Notes: generated by a model from the letters alone, not told the origin. DNA of 59,466 bases from a candidate division WOR-3 bacterium (GCA_026397595.1 JAPLUO010000197.1:1-59466); one strand, 5' to 3'. Shown: positions 26,214 through 32,701, numbered from the stretch's first letter. Made by a program: numbers and translations.

Positions 26214-27401
26214 GTGGACCTAATCGAGAGCCTTGCGGTCAAGAACGAGCAGAAGATACTGCTCGTCGTGCTTGATGGACTGGGCGGCCTGCCCAGGAAC
26301 GGCAAGACCGAACTCGAATCTGCCTCGACTCCCAACCTGGACGCACTGGCGGCCAAATCCGGGCTCGGGCTGCTGACGCCAGTGGATGTCGGAATAACCC
26401 CCGGGTCCGGACCCGGTCACATGGCGCTATTTGGCTATGACCCGGTCAGGTGTTTCGTCGGCCGGGGCGTGATGGAGGTCCTGGGCGTCGGCCTCCACCC
26501 GGGGCCGGACGATTTGTGCACGCGGGGCAACTTTGCCACGCTTGGCCCGGATGGGGCGGTCAGCGATCGCCGGGCCGGCAGGATTGCCACTGAGTTGTGC
26601 GTTGAGCTCTGTGAACGGTTGCAGGCCGCGATCCCGACCATAGAAGACGTCAAAGTGCTGGTCAGACCGGGCATGGGTCACCGGTTCGTCGTAGTGTTCC
26701 AGGGTCCGGGGCTTGGCGACGGGCTTACCGATTCGGACCCTCAGCACAACGGGTTGAAGCCGCTCGCGGTCGAGGCGTCAGGCCCGATCGCGGAAAAGTC
26801 GGCGCGCGTCGCCAATGGGTTCATCGAACGCGCCGCCGAGGTGCTTAAAGACCAGGACCGGGCCAACTTTGTTCTGCTGCGTGGTCTGGCCCTGCCGCCA
26901 CCGATTCCGTCAATGTGCGAGCGGTACAAGCTGACGCCGGCGTGTGTCGCCGCGTACCCGATGTATCGCGGCCTGGCTAAGCTCGTGGGCATGGACGTGC
27001 TTGAGACGGGCCAGACGTGGCAGAGTGAGGTCCAGACCGTGCGCGAGCACCAGTCTGAGTACGACTTCTTCTTCCTGCACTTCAAGGAGACAGACAAGGC
27101 GGGTGAAGACGGTAAGTTCGAGGCCAAGCAGGCGCTGATCGAGCAGTTCGACAAGGAGATTCTCCCGCAACTGCTCGCGCTCAACTTCGACGTGTTGTGT
27201 ATCACCGGCGACCATTCAGCCGGCGACAGTGGTCGGGCATTCGTGGCACCCGGTGCCGATGCTTCTGAACTCCGCGTACGTCCGGCCCCAACCGGTAGTC
27301 GGAGAGTTCGGGGAGGGCGCGTGCGCGCACGGCAGCCTCGGGCACATGCCTTCGGTGAAGCTGATGCAGTTGTTGCTGGCGAACGCGCTCAAGCTGAATA
27401 A
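26214..27401 (+). CDS. apgM: cofactor-independent phosphoglycerate mutase (ApgM type), frameshifted near 27219
   Basis: ILLVVLDGLGGLP...TPNLDALA...ITGDHS matches ApgM. After DHS the conserved continuation PATVVGHSWHPVPMLL...LKLNKFGA lies in the +1 frame (27220..27414). The in-frame tail is Arg/Ala-rich nonsense. Confidence 0.8.
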   Translation: MDLIESLAVKNEQKILLVVLDGLGGLPRNGKTELESASTPNLDALAAKSGLGLLTPVDVGITPGSGPGHMALFGYDPVRCFVGRGVMEVLGVGLHPGPDDLCTRGNFATLGPDGAVSDRRAGRIATELCVELCERLQAAIPTIEDVKVLVRPGMGHRFVVVFQGPGLGDGLTDSDPQHNGLKPLAVEASGPIAEKSARVANGFIERAAEVLKDQDRANFVLLRGLALPPPIPSMCERYKLTPACVAAYPMYRGLAKLVGMDVLETGQTWQSEVQTVREHQSEYDFFFLHFKETDKAGEDGKFEAKQALIEQFDKEILPQLLALNFDVLCITGDHSAGDSGRAFVAPGADASELRVRPAPTGSRRVRGGRVRARQPRAHAFGEADAVVAGERAQAE

Positions 27402-27414
27402 GTTCGGGGCATAG

Positions 27415-27975
27415 TTGGCTCAGCGTCGCGCAATCATCTCGGTCTGGGACAAGACCGGCATCGTCGAACTGGCGCGGGCACTGGCCGCTGCCGGGTACGA
27501 TATCCTCTCGACCTCCAAGACCGCGGCCGCGATTCGCGAAGCCGGAGTCCCCGTAACCGAGATCGCGACCTACACCGGCTCGCCTGAGATTCTCGGCGGC
27601 CGGGTCAAGACCCTTCACCCCAAGATTGCCGGCGGCATCCTGACCACACGTAAAGACGACACGGTCGACCCGATAGACATCGTGGTCTGCAACCTCTACG
27701 CTTTTGAGGACGGTCTGGCACGCGGAGCTACTCACGACGAGCTGGTTGAGTTGATAGACATCGGCGGTGTGACTCTCCTGCGCGCGGCGGCCAAGAACCA
27801 CGCGTTCGTGACCGTGGTCCCGGACCCGAAGCACTACCCGGCAATCATCGCCGAGTTGGGCCGAACCGGCACCATCAGTGCCGGGCTGCGGAAGAAGCTC
27901 GCGGCCGAAGCCTTCACCATCACCAGCCGCTACGACACCGCCATCGCCCGCTACCTCCAGTCCGTGACCGGCTAG
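27415..27975 (+). CDS. purH: stand-alone IMP cyclohydrolase (PurH N-terminal MGS-like domain only)
   Basis: ISVWDKTGIVELA, GGRVKTLHPKI and IDIGGVTLLRAAAKNH motifs. It stops after 186 aa, and no AICAR-transformylase domain is present downstream in any frame. Confidence 0.75.
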   Translation: MAQRRAIISVWDKTGIVELARALAAAGYDILSTSKTAAAIREAGVPVTEIATYTGSPEILGGRVKTLHPKIAGGILTTRKDDTVDPIDIVVCNLYAFEDGLARGATHDELVELIDIGGVTLLRAAAKNHAFVTVVPDPKHYPAIIAELGRTGTISAGLRKKLAAEAFTITSRYDTAIARYLQSVTG

Positions 27976-28218: not shown

Positions 28219-28246
28219 TTGACATCAGGGGAGAACGGGCTAATCA
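28219..28246 (+). promoter_or_regulatory. sigma70-like promoter (TTGACA-16-TAATCA), leaderless relative to ATG 28253
   Basis: The -10 ends 6 nt before the ATG. Coordinates are +/-1. Confidence 0.5.
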
Positions 28247-28252
28247 AGTGCG

Positions 28253-29539
28253 ATGACGAACCCACCCGAGCCCGCAATGTCGTTGGAGCAGGCCTACGAT
28301 AATCTCAACCCGACTGTCCCCCTGGAGCATGACAGCGAGTTCCTCGTGAAGGAGCTGTACGGCGAGTTCTGCGACACTGTGAGAGACCGGTTGCTCGTGG
28401 GCAAGTCCAGCCGCTCCAAATTGCTCTTGTCCGGCCACATCGGTTGCGGCAAGTCTACACTGCTCAATGTCATTGAGTGCGACCCCAAGGTCGCCCAAGC
28501 ATTTCTTGTTGTCCGTTGCAGCATCAAGGAGTTCGTGGAGCCGAATGAGCTGGAGCATATCGATCTCCTGTTGGCCATCGCACTCACCGTTGTAGATGCG
28601 GGGCACGAAGCGGGCGTCAAGCTCGACACGGGCACGGGCAAGAGGGTGGTCGAGATGTACAGGGAGCTGCGAGGGCTACTGGTGCACACGAAAGCCACGC
28701 AGAGCACCCGGAAAGCAGCCGCGTCCGCGAGTGCAGGGGTGGGGCTGCCCAAGGCGCTCGCCTGGCTAAGTGCGGACTTCAGGGCTGAGTACAAGTATCA
28801 GGATGAGTTCCGTCGTGAGGTCAGGGAGCATTTCCGTCCGCGACTGACGGACTTCATCAAGACCATCAATCTCCTGCTGGATTCAGTGACGGTGAGACTC
28901 GCGGGCAAGGAGTTGCTGGTTCTCGTGGATGATACCGACAAGCCGGTGGCCGATACCGCCCGGACGCTCTTCGGTACCTACGCAGGACAACTGGCCCAGC
29001 CCAACGCAAGCATCGTATACGTGGTAGACACGTCCGTGTCGTGTTTCGAAGAATTCCCGGCCATCAGCAATCGACTCGGTGGTGAGGAGTTCTTCCCTGC
29101 GGTTATCGTTCAGCCAGAGGGTAACAACCCGAGGACGCCGCGGGAACGGGTGCTCTGCGACCTGCTGCGCAGGCGGGTTCCTGCGAGTGTCATCCCGGAC
29201 GAGCATCTCCTACGGTTGGCTCGACTGAGCGGCGGTGTCGTACGGGAACTGCTGAGACTGGCTCAGCATGCCGTCTTCTTTGGTCGAGGTCGGGTCACGT
29301 CAGACGACATAACGCGTGCCGAGACCAAAGTATTCAACAGCTTCAACTTCGATGCCTCGGACGTCAAAGTCCTCAAAGCAGTTCTCAAGGACAAGACCTG
29401 GCTGCCGACGGATGAAATAGAGAAGAAGTCGTTCTTCAGGCTGCTCTTTTGGACTGCGCTCTTCCAGTACCGAAACGGCGACCGGAAATGGCACCGTCCG
29501 AACCCCATCTTCATTCCTTGGCTGCAAAAGCTCAGCTAG
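28253..29539 (+). CDS. Orc1/Cdc6-like AAA+ P-loop ATPase with winged-helix-like C-terminus
   Basis: Walker A GHIGCGKST, Walker B LLVLVDDTD, the sensor-2-like segment LSGGVVRELLRLAQHA...VTSDDITRAE, and a C-terminal segment of about 80 aa. Confidence 0.7.
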   Translation: MTNPPEPAMSLEQAYDNLNPTVPLEHDSEFLVKELYGEFCDTVRDRLLVGKSSRSKLLLSGHIGCGKSTLLNVIECDPKVAQAFLVVRCSIKEFVEPNELEHIDLLLAIALTVVDAGHEAGVKLDTGTGKRVVEMYRELRGLLVHTKATQSTRKAAASASAGVGLPKALAWLSADFRAEYKYQDEFRREVREHFRPRLTDFIKTINLLLDSVTVRLAGKELLVLVDDTDKPVADTARTLFGTYAGQLAQPNASIVYVVDTSVSCFEEFPAISNRLGGEEFFPAVIVQPEGNNPRTPRERVLCDLLRRRVPASVIPDEHLLRLARLSGGVVRELLRLAQHAVFFGRGRVTSDDITRAETKVFNSFNFDASDVKVLKAVLKDKTWLPTDEIEKKSFFRLLFWTALFQYRNGDRKWHRPNPIFIPWLQKLS

Positions 29540-31770
29540 AGCTCGGGCAGCGGCGTGAACTCGACGACCTGATTCGCAGGCTGCGCCTGCACCTCGGGCG
29601 CGGCGGCATCTTCATTCTCGAAGTCAAGGATGACGCGACGCTGACGGTCGTACGCGAGCGCATCCGGGTCGAACTGGGCCATGTCGAATGGCAGGAACTC
29701 GGATTGAGTGACGACCCGATAGCCGAGGCGCTGCGGCTGTTGAGGTCGGGTGCGACACCCGACGCAGTTTTCACCGTGAACCTGCGCGGGCTAGATGAAA
29801 AGCGCGAGAAGCGCACACTCGTCAACCTGAACACCCGACGTGAGTATGTTCCTGAACGGAGTATCCTGCTGCTGCTCTGGTGCCGACCCGGACAGATGTC
29901 CCGCGTGTCCGATATCGCCAAGGACTTCTGGAGTTTCCGGACCGACGTGGGCCGGTTCAGCGTGATGCCGGACCACACTGCCGAGAAGATGCTCGGTCTA
30001 GCCGCAAGGGAGCTAGAGATTGCGGAGGCGCGAGCCCTGCTCGAACGGGTCGAGCGCGACAGTAAAGCCGCTCCATCAGTGCTGCCATCAGTCCATTTCC
30101 GGTTGGGCGACCTGTTGTCCGACGCCGGTCGGCCGGATGAGGCGCTCGATCACTATCTACCCGCGGTAGACGCGTACCGCAGGCTCGACGACAAGCGGAA
30201 CCTTGGCGCGGTCCTCGGCAACATCGGGAACATCTATAGTGCCAAGGGCGAACTCGACAAGGCTCTCAAGTTCCATGACGAGGCGCTGGCAATACACCGC
30301 GAAGGTGGGTATCAGCAGGGCGTGGCGGATGACCTCGGCAACACCGGGAACATCCACAGCGCCAAGGGCGAACCCGACAAGGCGCTCAAGTACTACGAGG
30401 AGGCGCTGGCGACACATCGCGAAATCGGGCATCAACAGAGCGTGGCGAGCGACCTCGGCAACATCGGGAACATCTACAGCAACAAGGGCGAACCCGACAA
30501 GGCGCTCAAGTACTACGAGGAGGCGCTGTCGATACATCGCGAAATTGGGTATCAGCAGGGCGTGGCGGACCAGCTCGGCAACATCGGTAACATCTATAAC
30601 GCCAAGGGTGAGCCCGACAAGGCGCTCAAGTACTACGAGGAAGCGCTGGCCATGGACCGCGAAATTGGGTATCAGCAGGGCGTGGCGAGCGACCTCGGCA
30701 ACATCGCGAACACCTACAGCAACAAGGGTGAAACCGACAAGGCGCTGAAGCACTTAGAGGAGGCGCTGGCCATAAGCCGCGAAATCGGATATCAGCAGGG
30801 CGTGGCGACCCATCTGGGCAACATTGGGCTCATCTACAGCGACAAGGGTGAACCCGACAAGGCGCTGAAGCACTTAGAGGAAGCGCTGGCGATTAACCGC
30901 GGAATTGGGCATCAGCAAGGCGTGGCGATCGACCTCGGCAACATCGGGAACATCTACAGCGACAAGGGCGAACCCGACAAGGCGCTCAAGTACTACGAGG
31001 AAGCGCTGGCGATTGACCGCAAAACTGGGTATCAGCAGGGCGTGGCGACCCAGCTTAGCAACATCGGGCTCATCTACATCGCCAAGGGCGAACCCGACGA
31101 GGCGCTCAAGTACCATGTGGAAGCGCTGGCGATGGCCCGCGAAATCGGGCATCAGCAAGGCGTGGCGGACCAGCTCGGTAGCATCGGGAACATCTACCGC
31201 GCCAAGGGCGAACTCGACCAGGCGCTCAAGCACTACGAGGAAGCGCTGGCGATAGACCGGGAGATCGGGTACCAGCAGGGCGTGGCGAGCTGCCTCGGCA
31301 ACATCGGGCTCATCAACATCGCCAAGGGCGAACCCGACAAGGCGCTCAGGTACCATGAAGAGTCGCTGGCGATTCACCGCGAAATCGGGTACCAGCAGGG
31401 CGTGGCGACCCAACTCGGCAACATCGGGCTCATCTACATCGCCAAGGGCGAACCCGACAAGGCGCTCAAGTACTATGAGGAAGCGCTGGCGATAGACCGG
31501 GAGATCGGGTACCAGCAGGGCGTGGCGACCCAGCTCGGCAACATCGGGCTCGTTTTGACGGACATGGGGAGGCTGGAGCAGGCCGTGCCGAAATTGGTGG
31601 AGGCGTTGGGCGTTTTTCGGGCCATCGGTTTGGCTGACGGCCCCGCGCAGGTGCTGACCGGGTTGGTCCGGTGTGGAGACAAGCTTGGCCGGGCACGGGT
31701 CCAGGAACTGCTCAAGGACGCGGGACTGGATGTCGAGGGCATTGCCAATCTGCTGAAGTTGGTGGACTAG
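29488..31770 (+). CDS. TPR-repeat protein (unassigned ~200-aa N-domain + 12-13 tandem 40-aa TPR units)
   Basis: Repeats of the form LGNIGNIYSxKGEPDKALKYYEEALAIxREIGYQQGVAxx. The start is ATG 29488 (or 29449), which overlaps the ATPase gene by 52 (91) nt. Confidence 0.8.
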   Translation: MAPSEPHLHSLAAKAQLELGQRRELDDLIRRLRLHLGRGGIFILEVKDDATLTVVRERIRVELGHVEWQELGLSDDPIAEALRLLRSGATPDAVFTVNLRGLDEKREKRTLVNLNTRREYVPERSILLLLWCRPGQMSRVSDIAKDFWSFRTDVGRFSVMPDHTAEKMLGLAARELEIAEARALLERVERDSKAAPSVLPSVHFRLGDLLSDAGRPDEALDHYLPAVDAYRRLDDKRNLGAVLGNIGNIYSAKGELDKALKFHDEALAIHREGGYQQGVADDLGNTGNIHSAKGEPDKALKYYEEALATHREIGHQQSVASDLGNIGNIYSNKGEPDKALKYYEEALSIHREIGYQQGVADQLGNIGNIYNAKGEPDKALKYYEEALAMDREIGYQQGVASDLGNIANTYSNKGETDKALKHLEEALAISREIGYQQGVATHLGNIGLIYSDKGEPDKALKHLEEALAINRGIGHQQGVAIDLGNIGNIYSDKGEPDKALKYYEEALAIDRKTGYQQGVATQLSNIGLIYIAKGEPDEALKYHVEALAMAREIGHQQGVADQLGSIGNIYRAKGELDQALKHYEEALAIDREIGYQQGVASCLGNIGLINIAKGEPDKALRYHEESLAIHREIGYQQGVATQLGNIGLIYIAKGEPDKALKYYEEALAIDREIGYQQGVATQLGNIGLVLTDMGRLEQAVPKLVEALGVFRAIGLADGPAQVLTGLVRCGDKLGRARVQELLKDAGLDVEGIANLLKLVD
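30190..31560 (+). repeat. 120-bp tandem coding repeats (TPR units) of high nucleotide identity
   Basis: Twelve consecutive units, each starting GGCAACATCGGG.... They generate antisense and off-frame shadow ORFs. Confidence 0.9.
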
Positions 31771-31821
31771 CGGCGGCAGGCGATGGACGCAAAGAACTAG
31801 CCGTCGTGTTCGCTCCCCGGC

Positions 31822-31850
31822 AGCCGGCTGATGGCCGGCTTTCTCTTCTT
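31822..31850 (+). terminator. intrinsic terminator after the TPR gene
   Basis: AGCCGGC-tgatg-GCCGGCT forms a 7-bp GC stem, followed by TTCTCTTCTT. Confidence 0.55.
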
Positions 31851-31969: not shown

Positions 31970-32190
31970 GAGTTGGGGGAAGAGTTGACCCAAGAGTTGG
32001 GGGAAGAGTTGACCCAAGAGTTGGGGGAAGAGTTGACCCAAGAGTTGGGGGAAGAGTTGGCCCAAGAGCTGGGGGAAGAGTCGGCCCAAGAGTTGGGGGA
32101 AGAGCTGACCCATGAGTTGGGGGAAGAGTTGGCCCAAGAGCTGGGGGAAGCGCTGGCCCAAGAGTTGGGGGAAGTCTTGGGGGAATGGGG
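31970..32190. repeat. 24-bp tandem repeat, ~8.5 units (GAGTTGGGGGAAGAGTTGACCCAA)
   Basis: Near-perfect units with an internal 12-bp sub-period (GAGTTGGGGGAA / GAGTTGACCCAA). It is open in frames on both strands, so coding status is unknown. Confidence 0.9.
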
Positions 32191-32401: not shown

Positions 32402-32701
32402 CAGCTTTCGAGTTAGCTTTCGAACAAGCCTTGAATGGTGCTCTGAAATGAGCTTTAAGTCCAGCTTTCAGAAGAGCTTTGTCGTGTGCTTTCACTGAAG
32501 CTATGAACTGAGCGATGGAAGAAGCGATGGCCTGAGCTTTGAGGCGAGCGATGCGCTAAGCGATTGAACGAGCTTTGGACTGAGCTTTGAGAGGTGCTTT
32601 GAAATGAGCTTTCGAGTGAGCTCTTGAATGAGCCTTCGATGGAGCTTTCCGGCGAGCTTTCCAGGGAGTTTCCGAGGGAGCTCTCAAGAGAGCTTTGGCG
32701 G
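32402..32701. repeat. 25 consecutive 12-bp units in perfect register, consensus RAGCTTTNNNNN
   Basis: For example GAGCTTTGAAAT GAGCTTTCGAGT GAGCTCTTGAAT GAGCCTTCGATG GAGCTTTCCGGC GAGCTTTCCAGG. There are no indels over 300 bp, and the region is visibly more AT-rich than its flanks. Confidence 0.85.

Follow-up and report, generated by a model that had tools for sequence, protein, structure and literature searches.

In animals, plants, fungi and bacteria alike, innate immunity depends centrally on receptors that couple an NTPase to a repeat array. To our knowledge, those that have been characterised are almost all single polypeptides with an attached effector. In the STAND/NLR proteins (Avs, NACHT, AP-ATPase/NB-ARC-TPR, nSTAND1-WD40) a base-lid-winged-helix NTPase is combined with a long array of tetratricopeptide (TPR) or WD40 repeats; the sensor repeats are fused C-terminally in the same chain and the effector leads. 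Systems with a separately encoded partner include RADAR, in which the AAA+ ATPase RdrA is paired with an adenosine deaminase, and the nSTAND2 two-gene system, a mobile operon of an active NTPase and an inactive NTPase-like module fused to variable modules, the two being predicted to form a hetero-multimer (Kaur et al. 2021, PMC8195603). A two-gene module from a candidate division WOR-3 bacterium (GCA_026397595.1 JAPLUO010000197.1:1-59466) was compared with these systems; the whole stretch of 59,466 nucleotides (nt) is referred to below as the window. The module lies at 28219-31850 and consists of two overlapping plus-strand genes, both real according to the open reading frame (ORF) listing. 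Gene 1 (28253-29539; ORF listing, homologues, structure prediction and Foldseek) encodes a 428-aa AAA+ NTPase with base, lid and winged helix, and gene 2 (29488-31770; ORF, Pfam and homologues) encodes a 760-aa protein with a degenerate AAA+-like N-terminal domain (N-domain), a helical linker and a 13-unit TPR array. With moderate confidence, we read the module as a self-contained, split, nucleoside triphosphate (NTP)-gated sensor of the STAND/NLR kind, whose most likely role would be that of a conflict or immune sensor.

For gene 1, 37 homologues were detected. The AlphaFold2 (AF2) model of its product, calculated from an 18-sequence alignment (predicted local distance difference test, pLDDT, 83.7; predicted TM-score, pTM, 0.82), is composed of an AAA+ base, a four-helix insert of ~110 aa, a helical lid and a winged helix. 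Only ~50 residues precede the Walker A motif, and there is no N-terminal effector or adaptor domain. Conservation was scored over 18 family members. In Walker A (GHIGCGKST, residues 61-69; 28433-28459), G61, H62, G64, G66, K67, S68 and T69 are invariant, and in Walker B (LLVLVDDTDK, residues 221-230; 28913-28942) D226 and D229 are invariant, with D227 and K230 nearly so. The soluble insert (residues 102-213; 28556-28891) is placed between strand 2 and the Walker B strand and is made of the amphipathic helices 102-119, 126-150, 165-182 and 184-213, with R187 invariant; no transmembrane-like segment was found in gene 1, where the highest 19-residue Kyte-Doolittle mean (1.47) lies outside the insert. 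The lid motif SGGVVREL (residues 326-333; 29228-29251), at a sensor-2-like position between lid helices 316-326 and 330-344, contains the invariant residues S326, G327, G328, V329, R331, E332 and L333. The C-terminal winged-helix domain (residues ~345-428; 29285-29536; AF2 and Foldseek) has three helices, strands 403-408 and 411-416, and a conserved beta-hairpin wing, FQYRNGDRKWHRPNP; Y406, W413 and P418 are invariant, the wing is highly conserved and the domain is net basic. The motifs listed in the first-pass annotation, which was made from the sequence alone (GCGKST, LVDDTD and SGGVVRELLRLAQHA...VTSDDITRAE), are all present.

Foldseek, which the first-pass annotation had proposed as a check on gene 1, returned Cdc6/Orc1 structures first when run against the PDB (7jgr_G, E 2e-7; 2qby_A, 3.6e-7; 1fnn_A, 1.4e-6). 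These are full-length alignments with low TM-scores (0.38-0.47), as expected because multi-domain proteins differ in domain angles. They were followed by STAND-type and related ATPases, namely PaBy2304 (2qen, 1.2e-6; an archaeal STAND-like ATPase), RdrA (8hr8_H, 1.9e-4), Apaf-1 (3sfz, 2.1e-4), CED-4 (4m9s, 4.7e-4) and TnsC, with TnsC and MuB-type ATPases ranking lower. Gene 1 shares with Orc1/Cdc6 the AAA+ base, the lid with a sensor-2-like Arg and the C-terminal winged helix, but differs in its 110-aa helical insert before Walker B, and is bacterial, without origin context and always paired with a TPR protein. No Cdc6/ORC Pfam model matched it, the nearest result being PF24389 at E 0.0088, below the cut-off, in a cyanobacterial relative. 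The earlier description of an Orc/Cdc6-like ATPase with a winged-helix tail therefore stands as far as the modelled fold is concerned, but membership of that family by sequence is not established.

By sequence, gene 1 appears nearest, as a borderline case, to KAP_NTPase (PF07693). Pfam matches were sub-threshold throughout, and this model was the only one matched beyond the P-loop (13.4 bits against a cut-off of 20). The cut-off is passed by the cyanobacterial relative L014 (27.6 bits), and many homologues carry a precomputed PF07693 match. KAP NTPases, which include the defence NTPase Tmn, likewise have an insertion between Walker A and Walker B, but the insert of gene 1 is soluble and has no transmembrane helices. 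Transmembrane helices inside the KAP NTPase domain, as Aravind et al. are said to have noted in 2004, are typical but not universal. The NACHT, NB-ARC, nSTAND and AAA_16 Pfam models all stayed under the gathering score for the window gene 1, AAA_16 passing its threshold only in the cyanobacterial relative, and sequence searches of the PDB with gene 1 gave P-loop matches only. RdrA of RADAR is a structural neighbour among the AAA+ ATPases and also works with a partner encoded by another gene, but that partner is an adenosine deaminase and not a TPR protein, and there is no sequence similarity.

The partner proteins from all loci share an N-terminal domain of ~160 residues, in gene 2 residues ~1-165 (29488-29982), with the motifs GGIF(I/L), LNxRREY(V/I)P, an invariant Trp (W131) and A(K/P)DFWS(F/W)R. 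Its AF2 model (40-sequence alignment; pLDDT 89.7) has a long N-terminal helix and a five-stranded alpha/beta core. Foldseek matched this model exclusively to AAA+ domains, from the PDB and the viral BFVD; the PDB matches were 7z6h_K (2.3e-4), RAD17-RFC, Hda, clamp-loader delta, ORC2/ORC4, Sir3, p97 and NSF, so that the inactive ORC2, Sir3 and clamp-loader delta are among them. Between strand 1 (IFILEV) and helix 1 there is only KDD, a loop of 2-3 residues; the domain therefore has no Walker A, and the motif GxxGxGK[ST] was found in no member of the N-domain family. On the strength of the model, the N-domain is best described as a degenerate, nucleotide-free AAA+-like module.

The first-pass annotation had left this part of gene 2 unassigned. 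The two strings it quoted, GGIFILEVKDDATLTVVRERI and TLVNLNTRREYVPERSILLLLWCRPGQM, are present; neither Pfam nor NCBIfam matched the first ~190 residues, and the P-loop-less AAA+-like domain found by AF2 and Foldseek is not the housekeeping fold that would have spoken against a signalling module. A PDB sequence search with the N-domain gave nothing significant (best Sir3 AAA+, E 0.081). A single-sequence search of a 5.8-billion-protein index, seemingly without long TPR proteins, returned no match, and with the N-domain alignment the same index returned only proteins shorter than ~400 aa. The exact gene 2 product, with any of its three candidate starts, is absent from the protein collection searched.

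In pairing an active NTPase with an inactive NTPase-like module that is fused to variable modules, the gene pair comes closest, among described systems, to the nSTAND2 operon and the iSTAND components. However, the inactive module of nSTAND2 comprises an entire STAND, with GT4 or HEPN as fusion partner (PMC8195603), whereas that of the pair is a minimal AAA+-like core fused to TPR, WD40, STAND or CHAT. The iSTAND and iSTAND2 systems depend on MoxR and vWA genes encoded as a pair (Kaur et al. 2020, PMC7159879; Kaur et al. 2021, PMC8195603), and neither was seen next to the two genes in the window or at the other loci inspected. None of the nSTAND2 and iSTAND Pfam models matches the proteins of the pair, and the EACC1, iSTAND and nSTAND2 systems of Kaur et al., compared by their descriptions, were all rejected as matches. 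A full-text search of open-access papers and preprints found no description of this gene pair.

The linkage of the two genes was assessed from both sides. In every locus seeded with gene 1 (L001-L021; 95% to 23% identity) an N-domain gene lies directly downstream on the same strand; L022 was set aside, having a P-loop match only. When the N-domain was the seed, the gene immediately upstream and in the same orientation was a gene 1 homologue in L023/24 (Thiotrichales, with gene 1 fragmented), L026 (Microcoleus vaginatus), L029/30, L035, L037, L038/39, L040, L041 and L042. L036 has a short gene 1 fragment only, and the exceptions are L025 (pseudogene fragments), L033 (a 1.3-kb contig), L034 and L027/28. 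A contig profile search for relatives of gene 1 gave, among the matches listed, only cyanobacterial ones. Pairwise distances of gene 1 and of the N-domain are strongly correlated over 18 loci (Mantel r 0.98; reached by 0 of 2000 permutations). The pair is sporadically distributed and its flanking genes differ at every locus, and in every lineage examined the TPR array is encoded in a gene separate from gene 1. The genes are thus conserved neighbours, inherited together in distantly related bacteria, a point on which the first-pass annotation had made its reading depend: in all gene-1-seeded and most N-domain-seeded loci they stand together, each time between different flanks.

Decayed copies were seen at several of these loci. 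In L019 (7280-8085) the N-domain gene is split into two ORFs; in L023 and L024 (5676-6986), two assemblies of one Thiotrichales locus, gene 1 is in two ORFs with differing split points; and L025 (7001-10115; Nostocales HT-58-2) holds N-domain and TPR fragments without gene 1. Two kinds of stand-alone N-domain were also found. L034 (4938-5477) encodes a 179-aa N-domain with the full motif set (GRGGIFIF, LNIQREFVP, AKDFWSFRT) and without gene 1 or TPR, situated between a transporter and a DUF362-like gene in a low-GC genome. L027 and L028 (6001-6441) carry a 146-aa N-domain, P0067, likewise without TPR or gene 1, in a region of many small ORFs with two DNA methyltransferases, a lysozyme, M23 and peptidoglycan-binding proteins and a 1,678-aa helicase. 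From its gene content this region looks like a mobile element; PHROGs gave endolysin-like matches only, and weak relatives of P0067 were found only on two cyanobacterial plasmids, from Nostoc and Calothrix. P0067 could be a decoy or inhibitor of the system.

The N-domain occurs far beyond the window clade. Searching 1.84 billion representative proteins with a profile of the N-domain only gave 4,359 clusters (at 50% identity) with E<=1e-3, of which 1,941 reached E<=1e-10. The match is always at residues ~10-170, in proteins whose length ranges from 170 to 2,060 aa. In a sample of these proteins and in locus L011, Pfam scans revealed a common form, N-domain with TPR, beside N-domain with NB-ARC and TPR (P0105, P0117), with nSTAND1 (P0083, P0151 and, together with WD40, L011), with a giant WD40 array (P0148), with TPR and a CHAT protease (P0116) and with TPR and a GTPase (P0194). 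Directly next to P0116 lies the C-terminal end of a gene 1 homologue (E 3.8e-17). In leave-out searches, a profile of the window clade only still found cyanobacterial and CHAT-type members (E 1e-7 to 1e-10), and a profile without the STAND-linked subtype found the N-terminus of L011 (2.9e-11); in these profile comparisons, homology of the N-domain across clades holds. The part of gene 2 that follows the N-domain is exchangeable among lineages. That relatives carry the same N-domain ahead of NB-ARC, or of nSTAND1, with WD40 or TPR supports the earlier description of a split NLR/STAND-like architecture, and the structural matches of gene 1 to Apaf-1 and CED-4 are a further likeness to STAND/NLR proteins. 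The module differs from them in consisting of two polypeptides and in that its sensor protein starts with a P-loop-less AAA+-like domain and not with an effector.

The TPR array of gene 2 (30073-31653; Pfam, Tandem Repeats Finder and manual cutting) comprises 11 near-identical 40-aa units and a degenerate first and last unit. Pfam delimited 13 TPR_12 stretches (E 2.4e-155), and Tandem Repeats Finder a 120-nt period in 11.1 copies at 30213-31548, which bears out the 12-13 units of the first-pass annotation. Variation among the 11 canonical units is concentrated at nine of the 40 positions (6, 9, 10, 14, 20, 21, 28, 39 and 40). By inference from helical periodicity, positions 39, 40, 6, 9 and 10 would lie on the first helix of the unit, which in TPR proteins generally lines the concave face. 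In the relatives at 95% identity the partner proteins are 571, 731, 761 and 771 aa long and differ mainly in the number of 40-aa units.

On the reading that we favour, the dead AAA+-like N-domain would dock gene 2 onto the live gene 1 ATPase, by analogy with ORC, clamp loaders and nSTAND2. The ligand of the TPR array would be a protein or peptide, and its binding would alter the nucleotide state and the assembly of the complex of both proteins. In relatives, the signal may control the fused CHAT protease or STAND module; in the effector-less version of the window, the output could be the assembly itself (ligand sequestration), DNA binding through the winged helix of gene 1, or an unlinked partner. 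The fusions to NB-ARC, nSTAND1, WD40 and CHAT in relatives point to conflict systems of the kind described by Kaur et al. (PMC7159879, PMC8195603) and to STAND immunity (PMC13581612). An immune or antiviral role is suggested by analogy.

Several results weigh against such a role. PADLOC (PADLOC-DB v2), proposed earlier as a check for a defence system, gave nothing significant for gene 1 (best E 0.036 and 0.053), and for gene 2 it matched generic TPR models only. No effector domain is visible in either protein or in the window flanks, as the first-pass annotation had already stated, and the neighbours in the window, GpsA, ApgM, a short PurH, PEMT, urocanase and BamA, are housekeeping genes. A consistent defence-island context was not seen among the loci examined. 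Relatives of gene 1 or of the window-clade N-domain were not found in the viral contigs of IMG/VR, nor was a match to P0067 among GenBank phages. N-domain genes standing alone without gene 1 (L025, L027/28, L034) depart from the pairing. As regards the proposed docking, the Foldseek matches that support the N-domain fold agree with one another but are marginal (E 2e-4 to 5e-3, TM 0.4-0.5), and the idea that the N-domain diverged from a copy of the gene 1 core was rejected, hhalign giving a probability of 0.1 and no sequence relation. The Nei-Gojobori ratio of nonsynonymous to synonymous substitution, 1.55 at the nine variable TPR codons versus 0.18 at the other 31, is biased, the codons having been picked for their variability, and is only suggestive. 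The differences in unit number between close relatives may be real gain and loss or a collapse of repeats in metagenome assembly. Of the antiviral, Avs-like kinship proposed earlier, the part that stands is that relatives carry STAND modules; the antiviral role itself is suggested by analogy, with PADLOC negative.

One locus does have a defence-like neighbourhood, the only one among those examined: in L010 (5988-11127) a module of 35% identity lies a few kb from HSDR_N_2, two PIN-domain toxin pairs, of which one includes MazE, and a TIR_2 protein of 774 aa.

A broader proposal, which we put forward tentatively and regard as possible rather than probable, is that bacteria possess a large, undescribed family of two-component NLR-like immune receptors, with gene 1 and the N-domain as their constant core. 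These would be live/dead AAA+ hetero-oligomers with plug-in sensors and effectors (TPR, WD40, NB-ARC, nSTAND1, CHAT, GTPase), and the stand-alone N-domains of L027/L028 would act as assembly-poisoning decoys.

The alternative that survives best is a non-immune signal or assembly switch, which we consider rather unlikely. The pair would then be a split analogue of MalT/AfsR-type STAND proteins, or a scaffold or chaperone, with an endogenous partner for the TPR array and a winged helix that binds DNA or a client. The TPR_MalT, AfsR and NsdA-type TPR models do match gene 2, and the highly conserved wing in a net basic domain, the housekeeping neighbours, the missing effector and the negative PADLOC result would all suit a switch of this kind. 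It is opposed, however, by the sporadic distribution with different flanks at every locus, by the frequency of decayed copies (L019, L023/24, L025), by the variation of TPR unit number and contact-like positions between close relatives and by N-domain fusions to CHAT, NB-ARC, nSTAND1 and WD40, which are typical of conflict systems.

It is improbable that gene 1 is a DNA-acting AAA+ protein of a mobile element, either a replication initiator or a TnsC/MuB-like target selector, with gene 2 as an accessory adaptor. Cdc6/Orc1 as the best structural matches, the TnsC/MuB-type ATPases further down and the variable flanks, as for a mobile unit, are in its favour, but no transposase, integrase, origin features or flanking repeats were found in the window or in the loci inspected, no Pfam Cdc6/ORC model exceeded its threshold, and no copy was found in the viral contigs of IMG/VR or in GenBank phages.

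At the junction of the two genes, gene 2 has candidate starts at 29449 (TTG), 29488 (ATG) and 29518 (TTG), which with the end at 31770 give 773, 760 and 750 aa. The overlap in different frames that had been reported as 52-91 nt was confirmed, being 52 nt from the ATG (29488-29539) and 91 nt from the TTG at 29449. Relative to the window, the junction is ungapped in L006-L009, which are independent assemblies at 95% identity, four in all, and in another species at 67% (L002). The position of the gene 1 TAG is conserved, and the ATG at 29488 is a GTG at the same position in L002, where the TTGs at 29449 and 29518 are not start codons. Only the start at 29488 is conserved, and the conserved arrangement, in the 95% relatives and in L002, is therefore the 52-nt overlap. 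Elsewhere the spacing of the pair ranges from overlaps of 19 nt (L004), 11 nt (L014) and 4 nt (L029) to gaps of 7 nt (L020), 23 nt (L010), 47 nt (L011), 107 nt (L005) and 302 nt (L026). In the AF2 models a complete folded domain ends gene 1 and another begins gene 2, and the two genes are probably translationally coupled. The suggestion that a single ~1,170-aa STAND gene had been split by a frameshift, as a sequencing error or pseudogene, could appeal to the length of the overlap and to the frameshift in apgM ~1 kb upstream (27205-27230), by which the assembly or the genome carries indels, but it is refuted by the ungapped junction down to 67% identity with its conserved stop and start, by the varied spacing in distant lineages and by the complete winged helix and folded domain on either side, and is extremely unlikely.

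The boundary signals proposed earlier fared differently. Upstream of gene 1, a promoter-like element (28219-28246, plus strand) consists of TTGACA (28219-28224), a 16-nt spacer and TAATCA (28241-28246), and the gene 1 ATG follows 7 nt downstream. In an alignment of the upstream regions of the window, L006/L007 and L002, TTGACA is invariant and TAATCA, TAATCT or TAACCT follows 16-17 nt after it, with the ATG ~7 nt on, in an otherwise diverged spacer. A sigma-70 consensus scan of the window did not report this promoter, because its -10 element (TAATCA) is weak. The NCBI annotation of gene 1 is the 428-aa form from M1. From these alignments, it is plausible that gene 1 has a conserved promoter and starts without a leader or with a very short one; of the promoter claimed earlier the conserved elements stand, the scan being silent. 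Downstream of gene 2, the claimed terminator was found by scan as an intrinsic-terminator-like hairpin, AGCCGGCTGATGGCCGGCT (31822-31840), followed by T-rich TTCTCTTCTT (together 31822-31850, plus strand). The hairpin is kept in L006/L007 while the flanks diverge; terminator-like sites are no more numerous in this region than expected from shuffled sequence. An Rfam search of the window found no structured RNA.

Several features of the surrounding sequence were recorded. The gene for 2,3-bisphosphoglycerate-independent phosphoglycerate mutase, apgM (ORF 26214-27401), is apparently frameshifted near 27205-27230 (site 27100-27414): the first frame reads ...LCITGDHS and then nonsense, and the conserved C-terminus, ...ATVVGHSWHPVPMLL..., resumes in another frame (ORF 27229-27414). 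This may be either an assembly indel error or a pseudogene. Next to it, 27415-27975 encodes a 186-aa PurH-like protein in which the MGS-like/IMP cyclohydrolase part is followed only by the initial ~60 residues of AICARFT. Since the 15 listed members of its 32-member cluster are without exception 186 aa long, the short form is genuine rather than truncated. The interval from the gene 2 terminator to the PEMT-like gene contains a 24-nt tandem repeat (GAGTTGGGGGAAGAGTTGACCCAA; 31970-32174; 8.5 copies, 91% matches), after which come more 12/24-nt repeats (32523-32696). ORFs in the repeat region encode repeated peptides on both strands (ELGEELTQ on the plus and LLGQLFPQ on the minus strand). GC skew at 31-34 kb is unusually high (0.22-0.25), and no tandem repeat was found in the matching region of L007.

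The module of the window separates the NTPase switch from the sensor, and the link between the two would be a degenerate AAA+ domain for which there is no Pfam, NCBIfam or PADLOC model. If the pairing is physical, a function could be assigned to thousands of proteins whose only annotation is "tetratricopeptide repeat protein" or "ATP-binding protein", and the gating of an active AAA+ subunit by an inactive one could be studied in a simple system of two proteins. The module of this WOR-3 bacterium, which has no effector, raises the question of what the output of such a sensor is.

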